64,000 bases of DNA from an uncultured Solirubrobacterales bacterium (GTDB lineage: Bacteria > Actinomycetota > Thermoleophilia > Solirubrobacterales > Solirubrobacteraceae), in the NCBI GenBank assembly GCA_963839945.1, contig CAWIWW010000004.1, positions 976,218-1,040,217 on the forward strand, written 5' to 3'. Under the pieces are notes generated by a model that had not been told where the DNA came from, did no database searches, and worked only from the letters and a program-made list of their open reading frames with translations. Each line of letters opens with the position of its first letter. Position 1 is the stretch's first letter. This document shows positions 2,782-64,000 of the stretch, piece after piece. The translations under genes and the position numbers were made by a program.

Positions 2782-5286
2782 ATGCGCGTCCCACTGACCT
2801 GGCTGCGCGAATACTGCGACCCCGACCTCGACACGAAGGGGGTCGAGGAGCGATTGACGATGACGGGGACGAAGGTCGAGGCAATCCACCACCACGGCGT
2901 GCCTGCGCCCGACGGCTTCGTCGTCGGGCGGGTGCTCAGCGCCGAGCAGCATCCCGACGCCGACCGGCTGAAGGTGTGCACGGTCGACCTCGGCGCCGAG
3001 GACGAGCAGCCGGCGAGCATCGTATGTGGCGCGCCGAACGTGGCGGCCGGCCAGACCGTGGCGGTCGCGCGCCCCGGCGCGGTCATGCCCGACGGGACGA
3101 AGCTCAAGCAGGCGAAGCTGCGCGGCGTGCTATCCGAAGGGATGATCCTGTCCGAGCCAGAGCTCGAGATAGGCTCTGACGCTCAGGGAATCCTCGTGCT
3201 GGACGGGCAGATGCTCGACGCTACCGATCGGAGATCGAATGAGATCTCCGATCGGCCAACGGCGGGGACGGCGCTTGCGGATGTGCTGCCGATCTCGACG
3301 GACGTGCTCGAGCTCGAGATCACGCCCAACCGGCCGGACTGCCTGGGGGTATATGGGGTCGCGCGCGAGCTGCACGCCGCGACCGGGGTGCAGCTTGCGC
3401 ACCAACCGTGGAGCGAGGACCCCGGCTCGAGCGGTCCGGTCGCGGGGGCGCAGGTGGCGGTCGAGTGTCCCGAGCTGTGCCAGCGATTCACAGCGCGCGT
3501 GTTCGATGACGTCGCGATCGCGCCCTCTCCGCCGTGGCTGAAGGCGAGGCTGACCGCCGCGGGGCAGCGAACGATCAACAACGTCGTCGACATCACCAAC
3601 TACGCGATGCTGCTCACCGGTCAGCCGCTGCACGCGTTTGACCTCGACCGCGTCGCCGGGGCGCGGCTGACGGTCCGCCGGGCGCGCGGCGGCGAGCAGG
3701 TGCAGACGCTCGACGGCCAGACGCGCACGCTCGATCGGGAGATGGTCGTCATCGCCGACGCCGACGGCCCCACTTCGATCGCCGGTCTGATGGGCGGGAC
3801 GCGTTCGGAGGTACAGCCGGACACGACGCGGGTGCTGCTGGAGGTCGCCACGTGGAGCGGCCCGAACATCCATCGCAGCTCGTGGGCGCTTGGCCTGCGC
3901 AGCGAGGCGTCGGGGCGCTTCGAGAAGGGTCTGCAGCCGGAGCAGTGCATGCACGCCCAGGCGATCGCAACGCGCCTGCTGCTCGAGCTGTGCGGAGCGC
4001 GCGTCGCCGCTGGCACGATCGACGTCGGCGCCGAGTGGGCGAGATCTCAAGCGCAGCGGATCCGGCTGCGCGAGGCGCGCGTGGAGGCGATCCTCGGGGT
4101 GTCGGTCGCGCGCGCGCGTCAGGTTGAGATCCTGGGCGCTCTGGACTTCGCGACTGAGCTGCGCGAGGATGGCCTCGATGTGAGCGTGCCGGCACTGCGG
4201 CGCGACGACGTCACACGCGAGATCGATCTGATCGAGGAGGTCGCACGGATCGACGGCTTGGAGCGGCTGCCGGCGACCCTGCCCGCGCGTCGCGGCGCGG
4301 CCGGACGGTTGACGCACGCCCAACGCGTTCGCCGCGCCGCCGAGGATGCCATGGTCGGCCGCGGCCTGCACGAGATCGTCGGCTGGAGCTTCACCGACCC
4401 GGAGCTGCTCGACCGGCTGCTGCTGCCGGCAGAGCACGGGCTGCGGCGCGTGATCACGCTCGAGAACCCGCTGTCGGATGGGCAGTCGATCATGCGCCCC
4501 ACGCTGCTCGGCTCGCTGCTGGACGCCGCGCGGCACAACGTCGCACGCAACGGCCCCGACGTGGCGATCTTCGAGTCGGGCACCGTGTACCGCGCCAGCG
4601 AGGATGAGCGCCCGGCTGATGAGCACCATGGCCTGGGCGTTCTGCTCAGCGGTGGCCTGGCGCCGCGATCCTGGCGCGGCGAGCGCATCGAGGCGGATTT
4701 CTTCGCCGCCAAGGCGCTGCTGGGCGCGCTGCTCGAGCGTTTCTGCGTCCAGTGGTCGGTCCAGGATGGCGCCTGGCCGTTCCTGCACCCGGGCCGCCGC
4801 GCCGCGGTGATGGCCGCCCCGGGCCACAGCTCGGCGCTCGCGGGCGCCGACGGCGGCGGGGAGGGCGTGCGGCTGGGCTTCCTCGGTGAGCTGCATCCGC
4901 TGGTAGCCGCTGCGTGGGACCTGCCGCGCACGGCGGCCTTCGCGGTCGACCTCGGCATGCTGGCCGCCCTCGCCCCGCCGGTGGTGGAGTTCACGGCGTT
5001 CGGGCCGTTCCCGCCGCTGCGCCAGGATATCGCCATCGTTCTGGGAGAGGACGTGCCCGCCGCGCGGGTGCTGAACGCCACGCGCGGGGCGGGCGGGGAG
5101 CTGCTGCGCGACGTGCGCATATTCGACGTCTACACCGGCTCACAGGTGGGGGAGGGCCGGCGCTCGCTGGCGCTGGCGCTGTCGTTCCGGGCCGCCGACC
5201 GGACGCTCTCAGACGAGGACGTCGCGCCCGCACGCGAGCGGATCCTCGCGGCGCTCACCGCGCTGGGGGGTGAGCTGCGTGGCTGA
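2782..5286 (+). CDS. pheT: Phenylalanine-tRNA ligase beta subunit
   Basis: MRVPLTWL, HPDADRLKVC, IVCGAPNV, ITPNRPDCLG, NNVVDITNY, DLIEEVARI. Confidence 0.98.
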   Translation: MRVPLTWLREYCDPDLDTKGVEERLTMTGTKVEAIHHHGVPAPDGFVVGRVLSAEQHPDADRLKVCTVDLGAEDEQPASIVCGAPNVAAGQTVAVARPGAVMPDGTKLKQAKLRGVLSEGMILSEPELEIGSDAQGILVLDGQMLDATDRRSNEISDRPTAGTALADVLPISTDVLELEITPNRPDCLGVYGVARELHAATGVQLAHQPWSEDPGSSGPVAGAQVAVECPELCQRFTARVFDDVAIAPSPPWLKARLTAAGQRTINNVVDITNYAMLLTGQPLHAFDLDRVAGARLTVRRARGGEQVQTLDGQTRTLDREMVVIADADGPTSIAGLMGGTRSEVQPDTTRVLLEVATWSGPNIHRSSWALGLRSEASGRFEKGLQPEQCMHAQAIATRLLLELCGARVAAGTIDVGAEWARSQAQRIRLREARVEAILGVSVARARQVEILGALDFATELREDGLDVSVPALRRDDVTREIDLIEEVARIDGLERLPATLPARRGAAGRLTHAQRVRRAAEDAMVGRGLHEIVGWSFTDPELLDRLLLPAEHGLRRVITLENPLSDGQSIMRPTLLGSLLDAARHNVARNGPDVAIFESGTVYRASEDERPADEHHGLGVLLSGGLAPRSWRGERIEADFFAAKALLGALLERFCVQWSVQDGAWPFLHPGRRAAVMAAPGHSSALAGADGGGEGVRLGFLGELHPLVAAAWDLPRTAAFAVDLGMLAALAPPVVEFTAFGPFPPLRQDIAIVLGEDVPAARVLNATRGAGGELLRDVRIFDVYTGSQVGEGRRSLALALSFRAADRTLSDEDVAPARERILAALTALGGELRG
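3221..3258 (+). repeat. Palindromic repeat family B, copy 1 (in frame within pheT)
   Basis: CCGATCGGAGATC-gaatga-GATCTCCGATCGG, a perfect 13-bp stem; related copies at 22439, 39648 and 51927. Confidence 0.8.
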
Positions 5287-6433
5287 CTCGAACCCGCCGC
5301 AGACGTTCGCCCAGGGCTCCCCGCGCGTGCTCGTCGCCGGCGCGACCGGGTTCGCCGGGGCGCTGGCCGCGCACCTGCTGTGGCGCCACCCGCGGTTGGA
5401 GCTGACCGGAGTGACCGGGCGCTCGGAGGTGGGCCGGCGGCTGGACGAGCTGTATCCGCGCCACCGGGTGCCGCTCCAGGTCGCCGAGCTGGACCTCGAC
5501 GGGCTCGCGCTCGAACGGGAGACCGGCGGGCGTCTGGATGCGGCCGTCGTGGCCTACCCGCACGCGGCCGCCGCGCCCACCGTGGGCGCGCTGCGCGAGC
5601 TCGGCGTGCGCGTGGTTGATCTCAGCGCGGATTTCCGGCTGTCCTCACAGGCCACGTACGAGCAGTGGTACGGCGCCCACCCGCGCCCCGACCTGCTGGA
5701 TCAAGCGGTGTACGGGCTGAGCGAGCTGCACCGCGCTCAGATCGCCGGCGCGGGCATCGTCGCCAACCCCGGCTGCTACCCGACCGCGGCCGTGCTCGCC
5801 CTCGCGCCGCTGGCCCGCGCGGGCCTGATCGCCGACGTCGTGATCGACGCCAAGCAGGGCATCTCCGGCGCCGGGCGCACGTTCGACGAGACGACCCACC
5901 TGTCGATGGCGGGCGAGAACATCCTGCCCTACAACGTCGCCTCTCACCGGCACACTCCGGAGATCGAGGAGCAGCTGAACGGGTTGATCGATCTGAGTTC
6001 GCAGGGCAAGCTGGGCAAGGACGCAGGGAGCGTGGTGTGCTCTGCACACGAGCGACCGAGGACGCCGATCCAGCGCCGCCATGCGGGCTCAGCCCTGGTT
6101 GTTCAATTTCAGGCTCATCTCGTGCCGCTCGACCAGGGCGAGCTGGCCAGCTGCTACGTGACACCGACCCGCACCGTCGCGCCCGGCGAGCTGAGCGAGC
6201 TGTATGCGGACGCATACGCTGGCGAGCCGTTCGTGGAGGTCGTCAGCGAGCCGCCCGGCACCAGGGACGTGCTCGAGACCAACTTCTGCCGCATCTTCGC
6301 CGCCGCCGACGGACACACCGGCAAGGTGGTGGTGCTCTCGGCCATCGACAATCTGTGGAAGGGCACCTCCTCGCAGGCGATCCAGAACCTGAACATCATG
6401 TTCGGGCTCGCTGAGACTGAAGGTCTGACGTGA
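5279..6433 (+). CDS. argC: N-acetyl-gamma-glutamyl-phosphate reductase with a ~33-aa insertion
   Basis: GATGFAG, VVDLSADFRL, VANPGCYPT, GISGAG, HRHTPEI, AIDNLWKG. Confidence 0.95.
   Translation: MADSNPPQTFAQGSPRVLVAGATGFAGALAAHLLWRHPRLELTGVTGRSEVGRRLDELYPRHRVPLQVAELDLDGLALERETGGRLDAAVVAYPHAAAAPTVGALRELGVRVVDLSADFRLSSQATYEQWYGAHPRPDLLDQAVYGLSELHRAQIAGAGIVANPGCYPTAAVLALAPLARAGLIADVVIDAKQGISGAGRTFDETTHLSMAGENILPYNVASHRHTPEIEEQLNGLIDLSSQGKLGKDAGSVVCSAHERPRTPIQRRHAGSALVVQFQAHLVPLDQGELASCYVTPTRTVAPGELSELYADAYAGEPFVEVVSEPPGTRDVLETNFCRIFAAADGHTGKVVVLSAIDNLWKGTSSQAIQNLNIMFGLAETEGLT
5993..6092 (+). repeat. Structured repeat family A, copy 1 (in frame within argC)
   Basis: CTGAG...CTCAG termini; shares AAGGACGCAGGGAGCGTGG and CGAGCGACCGAGGACGC with the reverse complement of 19571-19676. 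Confidence 0.85.
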
Positions 6434-7734
6434 GCGCCGGCAACGACGTGTGGGGAGACCGGACTTCCGCCGGTCCGCCGCAGCCGTTCTTTCGCTCGCG
6501 CTGGGTGCCCGTGCCGGGACATGTGCGCGACCTCGGGCCCGACGCCGGCCTGCCCGCCGGCTTTCGCGCGGCCGGCGTCGCCTGCGGGATCAAGCCGAGC
6601 GGCAACGCCGACCTGGGGCTGCTCGTCTGCGACTCCGAGCATCCGGCGAGCGCGGCTCGTTTCACTTCGAGCGGCACCCCGGCGGCGCCGGTGCTGCTCA
6701 GCTCCGAGCGCTGCCGGCTCGACGGCCTGCGCGCGATCCTCGCCAACTCGGGCTGCGCGAACGCGGCCACCGGAAGGCGCGGGCTCGATGACGCCGCCAA
6801 GACCCAGGGAGCCGCCGCGCTCGCCGCCGGAGTGCAGCCCGACCAGGTGATTCTCGGCTCGACCGGCGGCATCAGTCAGTACCTGCCGGTCGAGAACATG
6901 CTGCGCGGAATCCTCGACGCCCAACGCCAGCTGCGCCGCGAGGGCGACATCGACTTCCAGCAGGCGATCCAGACGACCGACGCGTTGCAGAAGCGCGCCA
7001 ACCTCGAGGTGGAGCTGTCCACCGGCACGGTGCGCGTCTGCGCGCAGTGCAAGGGCGCGGGAATGATCTCCCCGCGCTTCGCCACCATGTTCTGCTTCGT
7101 GCAGACGGATGCAATCCTGCAGGCGCACACCGCAGATCTGCTGCTCGGTGTCACCGTCAAGCGCTCGTTCGACCGCGCCTCGGTGGACGGCCAGCTTTCC
7201 ACCAACGACATCGCCGTGCTGATGGCCTCGGGCGAGAGCGGCGTCGAGGTCGCTCCCGAGAGCGAGGACGAGCTGCGCTTCGGCGAGGCGCTCGACGCGC
7301 TCCTGCGGGCGCTCGCGATCATGATGGTCTCAGACGGTGAGGGCGCGCGGCGAATCGCACGCGTCGTCGTGCGCGGCGGGCACGCCGAGGGGGTGGAGGC
7401 GGTCGCGCGCGCGGTCGCGAACTCTCCCCTGGTGAAAACCGCGCTGCACGGCGCCGATCCAAACTGGGGGCGGCTGATCCAGGCCGTCGGCGCGGCCTGG
7501 GGTGGGCGGGATCGATTCACTCCGCCGCTGGCGGTGGACCTGTCGATCGAGGGCACGCTCGTGTGCTCGGCGGGCGTCGCGATCGGCTATGACGAGCCCG
7601 CCCTTGCCCAGGCCGTGCAGGCGGATGAGATCGAGTACGAGATCACGCTGCCCGGCGAGGGTTCTGAGAGCGAGGTCTTCTTCTCGGACCTCTCCCACGA
7701 GTATGTCCGCATCAACGCGGAGTACACGACATGA
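6430..7734 (+). CDS. argJ: Bifunctional ornithine acetyltransferase
   Basis: NSGCANAATG, KGAGMISPRFATMF, VDGQLSTND, SDGEGA, SPLVKTALHGADPNWGR, YVRINAEYTT. Confidence 0.97.
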   Translation: MSAGNDVWGDRTSAGPPQPFFRSRWVPVPGHVRDLGPDAGLPAGFRAAGVACGIKPSGNADLGLLVCDSEHPASAARFTSSGTPAAPVLLSSERCRLDGLRAILANSGCANAATGRRGLDDAAKTQGAAALAAGVQPDQVILGSTGGISQYLPVENMLRGILDAQRQLRREGDIDFQQAIQTTDALQKRANLEVELSTGTVRVCAQCKGAGMISPRFATMFCFVQTDAILQAHTADLLLGVTVKRSFDRASVDGQLSTNDIAVLMASGESGVEVAPESEDELRFGEALDALLRALAIMMVSDGEGARRIARVVVRGGHAEGVEAVARAVANSPLVKTALHGADPNWGRLIQAVGAAWGGRDRFTPPLAVDLSIEGTLVCSAGVAIGYDEPALAQAVQADEIEYEITLPGEGSESEVFFSDLSHEYVRINAEYTT

Positions 7735-7859
7735 GCGCTCCGCCCACACAGCCGACGCCTCTACTCAGCCAGTCCGGCGCGAGACCGGTGACGGCAACCC
7801 CGATGCAAGAGCTGAGCGTGGCAGTCACCCACCCATTCAACCCGAGGACTTCTCAATGA
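7731..7859 (+). CDS. 42-aa ORF bridging argJ and argB (translation unproven)
   Basis: Its ATG overlaps the argJ TGA and its TGA overlaps the argB ATG: MSAPPTQPTPLLSQSGARPVTATPMQELSVAVTHPFNPRTSQ. Confidence 0.4.
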   Translation: MSAPPTQPTPLLSQSGARPVTATPMQELSVAVTHPFNPRTSQ

Positions 7860-18368: not shown

Positions 18369-19574
18369 ATGCCATTGACGGCGACAAAGACTAAGCGCGG
18401 CGCACGGACTGCCGCCGCCAGCAGCGCGCGGAAAAAAGCCACTCCGGCGAGCACCGCCAAGCCCGCGCGTGCCTCGGCGAACGGACGCGCTTCGGCGAAC
18501 GGACTGAGCCCGGTGGCCGCGCCAGCCGCGCCCGCCGCGGCGGCAGCGGCTCGCCAGCAGGGTGGGGGGCACGGCCGGCGCCTGACGAGTGCGTTCGAAG
18601 CGCTCGAGGCGTTTCCCGCCCTGGTCGAGTCGCGCAACCGGCTGCTCTCGGCCGTCGACAAAGACAACGTCGCGACCGCCGACATCGTCACCGCCGTGGA
18701 GTCCGACGTCGCGCTGAGCATCGCCGTGCTGCGTCTGGCCAACCAGGTGCAGGGCAGCCGCGGGCGCGTGGCCACGATCGTCGCGGCCGTCGAGCTGCTG
18801 AGCGTGCAGGTCGTTCAGGCGATCGCGGGACGCGTGCGAACCTTCGACTTCTTCGAGCGATCGAGCGTTTGGGACGGGGCGCCAGAGCGCTTCCGGCTGC
18901 ACGCCCTGTCCACCCAACACGCGGCCGACCGGCTCGCTGCCGAGGTCGGCTACGAGCACCGTGACCGCCTGACCGTCACGAGCCTGCTGCACGACGTCGG
19001 CAAGCTCGTGCTGCTGCACGCCTATCCCGGCTATCCGGCGCAGGTTCACCGCGGCGCCAGGACCCCGGAGGATCGCATCCACTCCGAGCGCCGCGAGCTG
19101 GGCGTCGACCATGCGCTCGTGGGAGGCGTGCTGATCCGCCGTTGGGGTCTGCCGGGCGCGGTCGCCACCGCGGTCGAGCGCCACCACAACAGCGACATCG
19201 AAGGCGAAGTCGCGTTCGTACGCCTGGCGGACATGCTCGCCCACTACGAACAGGGCTCGACGGTGTCGCCGGGGGAGATGCTGCAGACCGCGCGCGTGCT
19301 CGGTCTCGGGCCGGACGAGCTCAGGCGTGTGATGTATGAGCTGCCGAGCACCGCCGGGCAGCGCCAGCGTCATGTCGACCCCTCACCGCTGTCCGGGCGC
19401 GAGCTGGGAGTGCTGCAACGGCTCGCCGAAGGCAAGGTCTACAAGCAGATCGCACACGAGCTGACGCTCTCCACGAGCACCGTCCGCACCCACCTGCACA
19501 ACATCTACGGCAAGCTCGGCGCGGTCGATCGCGCCCAGGCCGTTCTGATAGCGACTGAGCGCGGCTGGCTCTGA
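18369..19574 (+). CDS. HDOD-domain protein with C-terminal LuxR HTH
   Basis: DVALSIAVLRLAN, LLHDVGKLVL, DHALVGGVL..RWGLP, HH; C-terminal LSGRELGVL..LAEG...IAHELTLSTSTVRTHLHNIYGKLG. Confidence 0.9.
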   Translation: MPLTATKTKRGARTAAASSARKKATPASTAKPARASANGRASANGLSPVAAPAAPAAAAAARQQGGGHGRRLTSAFEALEAFPALVESRNRLLSAVDKDNVATADIVTAVESDVALSIAVLRLANQVQGSRGRVATIVAAVELLSVQVVQAIAGRVRTFDFFERSSVWDGAPERFRLHALSTQHAADRLAAEVGYEHRDRLTVTSLLHDVGKLVLLHAYPGYPAQVHRGARTPEDRIHSERRELGVDHALVGGVLIRRWGLPGAVATAVERHHNSDIEGEVAFVRLADMLAHYEQGSTVSPGEMLQTARVLGLGPDELRRVMYELPSTAGQRQRHVDPSPLSGRELGVLQRLAEGKVYKQIAHELTLSTSTVRTHLHNIYGKLGAVDRAQAVLIATERGWL

Positions 19575-19676
19575 GACGATCATTGGCCGGCGCGGCCTCT
19601 GCGTCCTCGGTCGCTCGCGTACGTAGTACGCCACGCTCCCTGCGTCCTTGATCCGCTTGGCCACTGACCGTCTCAG
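19571..19676 (-). repeat. Structured repeat family A, copy 2 (intergenic)
   Basis: 18-bp terminal inverted repeat (16/18) CTGAGACG...CGTCTCAG; core homologous to the argC insert. Confidence 0.85.
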
Positions 19677-21470: not shown

Positions 21471-22358
21471 GTGCATTCCCGCGCGGGCACCGGGCAGAGC
21501 ACTTCTGAGAGCGCGCGCGGCGAGGGTTTGCACGGCGCCGAGCTGGGCGAGCATAGTGCCGGTGAGCGTTACCTGCAGGCGTTCGAGCAGGCGCTTACGC
21601 GGCTGTCCGGGACGGTCTGTGAGGCGGCCGGGCGGGAGGGCTCATGGCTTGCGCGGGTGCGCGCGGGGCTGGTGGCGTTCCTGGGTTTCCTTGACGATGA
21701 GCCTGGGTGGGGTGCGCTGCTGATCCATGAGGCGCCGGTGCCGGGCGCGGTGAGTGCGCTGCGCCGCGAGCAGCGGGTGCTCGGCGTCCTGACGGGGCTG
21801 CTGGACGGCGGGAGTCCCCAGGTGGTTGGCGAGTCGCTGTCCTCTCCCGAGCTGACCTCCGAGCTTGTGATCGGCGGGGTGCTGTCGGTCATCCGCTCCC
21901 ATATGCACAACAGGCGTGAGGGCGAAACGTTCGTGGAGCTCGCGCCCTCGATGATGGCTTTCATCGCGCTGTTCTATCTCGGTCAGGCCGCGGCGCAGAC
22001 CGAGCTGTTGGGGATGTCCGCTCCCGCCCGGGAGGCGACCCTGGACTCTGCCGAGCTGCGCAGCCTGCGCCTGCCGGTGCGCCTCACGCATCGCACGATG
22101 CTGGTGTTGCGCGCGATCGCCGCGGCGCCCGGTTCGAGCAACCGTCAGATCGCGCAGATCGCGGGGTTGGGCGATGAGGGTCAGACCTCGAAGCTGCTCT
22201 CGCGGCTTGCGCAGCGCGGGGTGATCGAGAACGTCGGTGTCGGCATCGCCGGCGGCGAGCCGAACGCGTGGCGGCTCACGGCCGACGGTGAGCGCGTGCT
22301 GCGGCTGACCGGCGGTGTGGCCTCCGCGGGTTCACCCCGGCGTAGGAGCTTGACCTGA
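21471..22358 (+). CDS. Regulator with a TetR-type C-terminal helical domain fused to a winged HTH (start uncertain)
   Basis: WLARVRAGLVAFLGFLDDEP and ELVIGGV; C-terminal VLRAIAAAPGSSNRQIAQIAG...SKLLSRLAQRGVIEN...AWRLT. Confidence 0.7.
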   Translation: MHSRAGTGQSTSESARGEGLHGAELGEHSAGERYLQAFEQALTRLSGTVCEAAGREGSWLARVRAGLVAFLGFLDDEPGWGALLIHEAPVPGAVSALRREQRVLGVLTGLLDGGSPQVVGESLSSPELTSELVIGGVLSVIRSHMHNRREGETFVELAPSMMAFIALFYLGQAAAQTELLGMSAPAREATLDSAELRSLRLPVRLTHRTMLVLRAIAAAPGSSNRQIAQIAGLGDEGQTSKLLSRLAQRGVIENVGVGIAGGEPNAWRLTADGERVLRLTGGVASAGSPRRRSLT

Positions 22359-22438
22359 TGACTCCCAACCAAATCGATCCAGGGGTGCCGAGGGGCAAGC
22401 AGATCAGGATGCACCGAGCGTGGCGTGCTACGCACGCG

Positions 22439-22477
22439 TGCTGGCCGATCGGAGATCCCATCGATCTCCGATCGGTA
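22439..22477 (-). repeat. Palindromic repeat family B, copy 2 (intergenic)
   Basis: CCGATCGGAGATC-ccatc-GATCTCCGATCGG, the same stem as the pheT copy. Confidence 0.8.
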
Positions 22478-22586
22478 AGGACGCGGAGATGCGCCGCTCA
22501 TCGGTGCCCTGGCCTGGGAGAACTTTGCCGGATGGCAAGGACTAGCTAGCAGTGCAAATCGAGAAGACGAAAGGGAGTGATGGGAA

Positions 22587-63242: not shown

Positions 63243-63273
63243 TCACCCGCGCGGCGTTCGCTACACTCGCCTG

Positions 63274-64000
<727 letters not shown>

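Follow-up and report, generated by a model that had tools for sequence, protein, structure and literature searches.

The stretch analysed here, 64,000 nt from a contig of an uncultured Solirubrobacterales bacterium (CAWIWW010000004.1, positions 976,218 to 1,040,217; the window in the following), raises the question of why its argC gene contains some 33 codons which recur, as a hairpin, between genes. An earlier note on this DNA, made from the sequence alone, had taken the segment for a possibly undescribed structured RNA or single-stranded DNA (ssDNA) mobile element which adds peptide segments to enzymes, as do the Rickettsia palindromic elements (RPE). Our analysis indicates that the argC copy is the exception in a family of hairpin repeats found mostly at the ends of genes. 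The best reading of the family is that of a non-autonomous, copy-and-paste DNA repeat, comparable to the repetitive extragenic palindromes (REP) or to the Tuberculosis Rho-independent terminator motif (TRIT) elements, copying being the mechanism that we infer.

The argC insertion

About 33 extra codons of argC match the reverse complement of window positions 19571-19676, as had been noted: the two copies (copies 1 and 2, Table 1) share two identical conserved blocks, while their apical, middle and outer stems differ and yet stay paired. Positions 5993-6092 code in the argC frame for exactly the 33 residues that the earlier note had quoted. The open reading frame (ORF) is uninterrupted, G+C at third codon positions (GC3) is 0.88-0.95 on either side of the insertion and the GCYPT and HRH motifs are present there.

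The argC segment is a true in-frame insertion. As anticipated, it is absent from the ArgC orthologs, in this case from all 26 that were compared (22 from congeners and four from other genomes of the order), and the distance between two invariant ArgC motifs is 189 nt here and 90 nt in the closest relatives, a difference of exactly 99 nt. In an alignment with the Thermotoga enzyme 1VKN, residues 20-238 correspond to chain positions 16-228 and residues 272-386 to positions 230-344, so that the insert stands in place of a tight turn just after the HRH motif; in a Pfam search the ArgC dimerisation domain is broken into two by the insert. In three other genomes (loci L002, L003 and L018 of genomes G024, G001 and G018, respectively) this loop is occupied by unrelated extras of 7-20 aa, which are lineage-specific. 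These extras were considered as decayed copies of the element and ruled out, as they give no significant match to the model. Judging from the orthologs, the ArgC loop is a tolerant spot of variable length.

The strand that is sense in argC, which is the purine-rich strand of the repeat, is labelled element-sense in the following; its coincidence with the sense strand of the host gene makes the orientation of copy 1 an atypical one. In several relatives a true family member is found downstream of argC, at a distance of 1.3-2.2 kb. An insert of 125 nt between argJ and argB (window 7731-7855) was also considered and is not of the hairpin family, having neither the core words nor a match to the model.

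Structure and covariation of the repeat

The genome to which the window belongs (2.77 Mb in five contigs, 69% G+C, 89.8% complete) contains the exact and near-exact core words dozens of times. With nhmmer 49 copies were found at first and 53 later, and with a covariance model, for which 30 copies had been used, 47; the expectation of more than two copies genome-wide was thus correct, the earlier note itself having missed a third copy within the window. The copies are scattered, with housekeeping genes as neighbours, and all five contigs have some.

Each copy is one long hairpin, an imperfect palindrome of roughly 100-110 nt. From the outside inwards, the outer stem (about 11-16 bp) is followed by a short spacer, which is conserved, by a middle stem of 4-5 bp, which varies, by a core, and by an apical stem of 6 bp closed by a 3-nt loop. 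In the purine-rich conserved core identical short words (GGAC, GAGCG) lie opposite each other on the two arms, and inside the core there is a covarying 2-bp step (GG/CC, CC/GG, AG/CU, GC/GU, AC/GU). From this geometry the facing core purines are predicted to form stacked G.A/A.G pairs split by short Watson-Crick steps.

Among the copies of the window's genome compensatory change is found at 26 of 34 predicted pairs. In an alignment of 108 copies from about 100 genomes, fitted to the model and with loci fetched by an exact core pattern (which makes the core invariant by construction and leaves stems and context free of that bias), 91.5% of the cells are paired, compared to 64% in shuffles and 25-40% with slid partners. 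Both sides have changed at 31 of the 34 pairs, and none of 500 shuffles attained such values. Matches of the model in other families, for which the pattern was not used, keep the core with only few substitutions.

Pairing is asymmetric with respect to strand. The non-canonical cells of the 108 copies include 186 G:U versus 46 A:C, and 198 purine-purine versus 56 pyrimidine-pyrimidine; the earlier description of a structured multi-copy element with compensatory changes and with wobbles on one strand holds in these counts. The element-sense strand, 58.5% purine, is the more stable one in 38 of 43 and in 93 of 108 copies, by 5-7 kcal/mol. For copies 1 and 2, the folding energies of the argC-sense strand and of its complement are -52.6 versus -46.4 kcal/mol in one copy and -56.3 versus -50.2 kcal/mol in the other, and against shuffled sequence z for the two copies is -3.8 and -5.7 on the strand described in the earlier note, the complement giving -2.5 and -4.7. 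The opposite asymmetry would be expected if cytosines were deaminated on the coding strand or on leading-strand sequence. Given the observed asymmetry and this opposite expectation, the strand that folds, as ssDNA or as RNA, appears to run antisense to the host gene.

Position at the ends of genes

The element normally follows a gene and lies antisense to that gene. In the window's genome 34 copies have opposite-strand coding sequence on the 3' side of element-sense and three have same-strand coding sequence there, and 32 of the 53 copies have a stop codon 16-46 nt ahead of the first core word, 18 of them at the modal distance of 26-29 nt. Of 121 copies taken from about 115 other genomes, 61 have a sense-coding upstream flank and ten an antisense one, the flank of the other 50 not being callable; in 57 of the 61 the stop precedes the core by 16-38 nt, the mode being 26-28 nt. 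Among 108 stop-adjacent copies, all three bases of the stop codon are paired with the distal arm in 70, and the stem enters the coding sequence by at least 3 nt in 60, the maximum being 23 nt.

Junctions of two translationally coupled genes are frequent sites, and many copies lie between genes which overlap (ATGA, GTGA) in element-free relatives. The order at such junctions is stop codon, hairpin, 7-30 nt with a Shine-Dalgarno-like run, and start codon. Clustering of 202 flanking ORFs from 120 loci gave no recurrent neighbour, the genes being ordinary housekeeping genes only. Replication direction was considered as the source of the orientation bias and rejected, since six genes on the lagging strand still bear the element antisense to themselves; orientation therefore follows the gene and not replication.

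Complementarity of the outer arm to the host gene

Four genomes of different families carry a copy on the 3' side of gyrB, and in one gyrB copy 16 nt from the end of the gene have their complement in the distal arm. At the site of copy 2 the ends of the arms are matched across genomes as TGA/TCA, TAG/CTA or TAA/TTA, and in another copy the distal arm matches four coding bases that are specific to the window's genome. A mobile element cannot carry in the sequence of the end of its host gene, so that the arm must be templated from the host side. Strand switching in quasi-palindromes is a known mechanism by which such templated arms are made, and it most likely shaped the outer arms of this family.

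Gain, loss and decay

The family behaves like mobile DNA, with copies gained, lost and decayed among close relatives. At the site orthologous to copy 2, read at 19 loci among 60 congeners, the element is intact in ten (this genome included), degenerate or other sequence is found in six, and three are empty, the stop of the gene running directly into the downstream sequence. In about 40 further congeners the alignment at this site is broken into two, which is consistent with absence. At least 15 sites occupied in a relative are empty in the window's genome. Decay is seen at C1:574850-574917 of this genome, where a truncated copy comprises the left arm to the first core word and then a deletion, and where the relative L067 has a full copy.

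When a 20-kb stretch was compared with five relatives, one copy was genome-specific, one was shared with the closest relative only and one was missing from three relatives. Between the first of these and non-orthologous copies of the same relatives identity is 95-97%, compared with only about 70-89% for the orthologous DNA, and this points to recent copying from a conserved master sequence. Comparison of filled with empty sites shows 3-7 nt of identity between the target and the element terminus, which usually contains TGA; no clear direct target duplication longer than 3 nt was found in these comparisons, whose precision is limited by flank divergence.

A different repeat type was met at one of the sites compared. 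In place of the element at C4:1090994-1091102, the orthologous site of the closest relative (L273, G007:C8:89700-90000) is occupied, between two convergent genes, by about six perfect palindromes which are short and centred on GCATGC or CACATGTG.

Search for a mobilising enzyme

No Y1/RAYT gene (PF01797) was found in the window's genome (89.8% complete), nor in 37 of 41 relatives, which include closed genomes rich in copies. IS110, TnpB and rve-type genes were not found in the window's genome either, and two weak DDE_Tnp_1 matches are all that it has. Two RVT_1 matches were considered as a mobiliser and rejected, as they belong to a two-copy group II intron elsewhere in the genome which is unrelated to the element. 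The two introns (C1:95621-97612, minus strand, and C4:436775-438766, plus strand) are 1992 nt long and 99.4% identical, encode the reverse transcriptase, and are both inserted in paralogous coding sequence for a basic Cys-containing module.

Distribution

With the covariance model, 22 of 24 congeners were found to have the family, at 1 to 70+ matches each, and two had no match; five other families of the order also have it. Five of the searched genomes are without any copy, three of them 93-100% complete genomes of the order. The core pattern is present in more than 120 contigs titled Solirubrobacterales, Solirubrobacteraceae, Thermoleophilaceae, Gaiellaceae/Gaiellales or Conexibacter sp. CPCC 206217. 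According to the NCBI taxonomy these named carriers all belong to the class Thermoleophilia, the exception being one 3-kb contig of a metagenome-assembled genome labelled Acidobacteriota. In an even sample of the phylum the family was found in 12 of 144 good genomes, a tally which takes in three unpublished positive genomes (G077, G124, G195) that no other result uses. There is no copy on IMG/VR viral contigs, PLSDB plasmids or GenBank phages.

Other copies in the window and nested repeats

The three copies of the window are listed in Table 1. The outer stem of copy 2 includes, among its first bases, the plus-strand regulator gene's TGA (19572-19574), and no promoter or terminator-like site was found at this copy. 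Copy 3 starts about 20 nt past the stop of a plus-strand ORF (21471..22358) and is, like copy 1, in atypical orientation.

Table 1. Copies of the hairpin repeat in the window and the genes concerned (positions are those of the window).
Feature	Position	Strand	Remarks
argC ORF, N-acetyl-gamma-glutamyl-phosphate reductase, host of copy 1	5270..6433	+	387 aa
Copy 1 of the hairpin repeat	5993..6092	+	net insertion of 99 nt, in frame in argC, residues about 240-272
HDOD and GerE (LuxR-type helix-turn-helix) regulator gene, stop codon paired inside copy 2	18369..19574	+	
Copy 2	19571..19676	- (element-sense on minus)	typical position and orientation
Copy 3, mosaic	22379..22512	+	conserved block 2 split by a nested palindrome (22440-22476) that belongs to a second repeat family

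Mosaics, with a second or third palindrome nested at differing places, make up about a dozen of the genome's copies, and one locus consists of three tandem units with a period of 117 nt. The second palindromic family, a GGAGATC/GATCTCC hairpin, is nested in about a dozen copies, e.g. at window 22440-22476, C1:317789-317940 and C2:554086-554267; the earlier note had placed this hairpin at window 3221, 39648 and 51927, partly within genes. The third nested module is a longer G-rich hairpin, which breaks the apical region at C2:245453-245699, C2:322998-323189 and C1:346808-346998. At C4:1222206-1222403, C4:72039-72230 and C1:223556-223783 the first core block is swapped for an unrelated block containing CCCACCC.

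Comparison with known repeats

Searched as a whole against Rfam 15 at the gathering threshold, the window gave one match only, a ZMP/ZTP riboswitch (63271-63353, 56.8 bits), and copies 1 and 2 searched at E up to 10 gave chance-level matches only. No description of repeats in Thermoleophilia was found in the literature searched. The suspicion of novelty is borne out in this sense: the family is undescribed and of a familiar kind, that of interspersed palindromic repeats at gene ends, and is not a new kind of system.

Closest in position is TRIT, an abundant conserved hairpin of Mycobacterium with 147 copies (Gardner et al. 2011, PMC3152330). It is confined to a very narrow range of positions about the nearest stop, overlapping the coding end, its function and binding factor are unproven, and it is reported as Mycobacterium-restricted, palindromic and mostly bidirectional (PMC3152330). 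The Thermoleophilia family likewise starts its hairpin over the coding end or stop codon in a narrow window; it is set apart, by description, by its length of about 100 nt, its strand asymmetry and orientation bias, and the free covarying stems around a purine-rich core.

REPs are 20-40 nt long, have a stem of 8-9 bp and a GTAG or CGTC tag, and form mostly inverted dimers, the GTAG REPs going with RAYT (Di Nocera et al. 2013, PMC3733652). CGTC REPs have no dedicated transposase, lie in some cases inside genes and include in-frame Rickettsia elements (two RPE families), and the same survey reported no REP families in Actinobacteria (PMC3733652). Shared with REPs, BIMEs and REPINs are the multi-copy extragenic palindromes at gene 3' ends and within operons, the mosaics, the variable copy number and one strand alone being thought active, while the Thermoleophilia unit differs from REPs and REPINs in being about 100-110 nt long, untagged, mostly single and without a RAYT gene in the window's genome and in 37 of 41 relatives. 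RPE are comparable as palindromic repeats of about 100-150 nt which can sit in frame in protein genes and add peptide; in the Thermoleophilia family in-frame residence is rare, the sequences are unrelated, the host phylum is another one and the CGTC tag is missing.

ERIC (or IRU) and Correia elements are imperfect palindromes of about 100-150 nt, co-transcribed with their neighbours and with orientation-dependent folding of the RNA. They have conserved terminal inverted repeats, with a TA target duplication in the case of Correia, whereas in the Thermoleophilia family the termini vary, duplications longer than 3 nt are lacking and the outer stem is partly copied from the host. The absence of a fixed-length target-site duplication also distinguishes the family from miniature inverted-repeat transposable elements. 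Integron attC sites are imperfect palindromes which are found after an ORF, always oriented the same way, and whose fold forms on one DNA strand and is preserved even as the arms vary. In contrast to these, the Thermoleophilia copies are dispersed by housekeeping genes, with no cassette arrays and no GTTRRRY-type core sites seen; an integrase was not searched for. From intrinsic terminators the family differs in having no U-tract, the sequence after the hairpin being G-rich and often containing the ribosome-binding site of the next gene.

Proposed explanation and alternatives

We give a probability of roughly 0.6 to the explanation that a non-autonomous hairpin repeat enters at matches to its TGA-containing end, survives where the stop codon is kept and grows its stem into the host gene, the argC copy being accidental and tolerated. 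New copies would enter where a few bases of the element terminus, usually with TGA, match the target; as such a match keeps the stop codon, the insertion would be harmless. Afterwards the distal arm would turn complementary to the host's own stop codon and last codons. Templated strand switching would also mend mismatches between the arms, and would so yield 'compensatory' changes which mimic selection for pairing, and changes on the coding arm would be purged by selection on the protein. The active form is probably single-stranded. The argC copy would be an accidental insertion in the orientation opposite to the usual one, and would be tolerated for three reasons: its length is exactly 33 codons, it has no stop in that frame, and the loop into which it falls varies in length among orthologs.

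A number of points weigh against this explanation. The search of the window's genome for a mobilising enzyme of the Y1/RAYT, IS110, TnpB or rve type found none. The hairpin has no conserved flank tag, no column around it exceeding about 0.4 bits in the 108 copies, and its termini are not conserved like the inverted repeats of transposons, the outer arms varying between copies and being partly host-derived. The near-absolute orientation bias is left unexplained by symmetric termini. The copy at gyrB in four families suggests long retention or selection, and the conservation of the core across families of the order and beyond, unusual for a REP-like repeat, could reflect a host function. The compensatory patterns could partly stem from gene conversion among copies, and the gene calls are crude, being our own GC3-frame analysis.

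An alternative is a host-selected RNA element at gene ends. In the mRNA of the upstream gene such a hairpin would be a factor-dependent terminator, would block 3' exonucleases or serve as a processing site, or would slow the termination of translation, functions as proposed for the mycobacterial TRIT and for stop-proximal REPs; the argC copy would then be a misplaced by-product. Placement at the stop codon is narrow and class-wide and orientation is fixed, the core is conserved across families and the copy after gyrB is kept in four of them, and TRIT, for which its authors suggested a binding factor, is equally narrow over stop codons (PMC3152330). We nevertheless consider such an element unlikely: at wobbles and tolerated mismatches the bias is about 4 to 1 for the strand antisense to the mRNA, the hairpin lacks a U-tract and any terminator-like site, and numerous copies occupy positions within operons, with the next start 7-30 nt away, where terminating transcription would do harm. 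Copy numbers from 0 to 70+ among congeners, three genomes of the order which are 93-100% complete and have none, and the existence of degenerate and truncated copies also speak against it.

The strong strand asymmetry of pairing, and a core that is conserved while the stems are free, would agree with the purine-rich strand (ssDNA or antisense RNA) being the substrate of a lineage-specific enzyme or binding protein which recognises the G.A-rich core, a new system unrelated to HUH/RAYT. No known transposase family explains the repeat, and the identity of 95-97% between non-orthologous copies across species implies a conserved master sequence. Such dedicated machinery is rather improbable, however, in view of the neighbour and transposase searches, which yielded no protein partner and no recurrent gene among the 202 flanking ORFs, of the lack of a promoter-like or tag sequence conserved beside the hairpin, and of the absence of copies from viral contigs, plasmids and phages. 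It is doubtful, though conceivable, that the G.A-rich core is the site for a lineage-specific protein on the purine-rich single strand, either for a hairpin copying free of HUH and DDE enzymes or as a genome-wide device which locks the stop and last codons in a helix. The reading of the earlier note, an RPE-like element which habitually inserts in frame and adds peptide segments to enzymes, has on its side the argC insertion, in frame, intact and absent from orthologs, and the relative L095, in which the element makes an in-frame C-terminal replacement. Against it, the argC copy is the only one of the 53 copies of this genome with same-frame coding on both sides, and the 121 copies from other genomes include no internal insertion and only four C-terminal read-throughs, in which the upstream gene runs through the whole element and ends just beyond. 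Four long open frames through copies in relatives, taken as candidates for further in-frame copies, proved to be intergenic. This partial census points against a habit and we regard it as very improbable; the mobile behaviour and the true insertion in argC stand, and the addition of peptides is the exception.

Significance

Thermoleophilia are abundant soil bacteria which are hardly cultured and whose genome biology is nearly unstudied. The repeat affects annotation at dozens of housekeeping genes per genome, by way of gene ends, false long ORFs, extra peptide segments and downstream start sites, and the argC copy demonstrates that such a repeat can lengthen an enzyme of an essential pathway by 33 residues with the frame unbroken. 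For the discovery of RNAs the family is a cautionary case, as very strong covariation need not signal a functional RNA gene. For mobile DNA it bears on the questions of how palindromic repeats without a transposase spread, which is asked of the CGTC REPs too, and how the complementarity of the arms is kept up, here visibly by copying from the host. A device locking the stop codon, if true, would tune translation termination, coupling or mRNA decay for dozens of housekeeping genes in Thermoleophilia.

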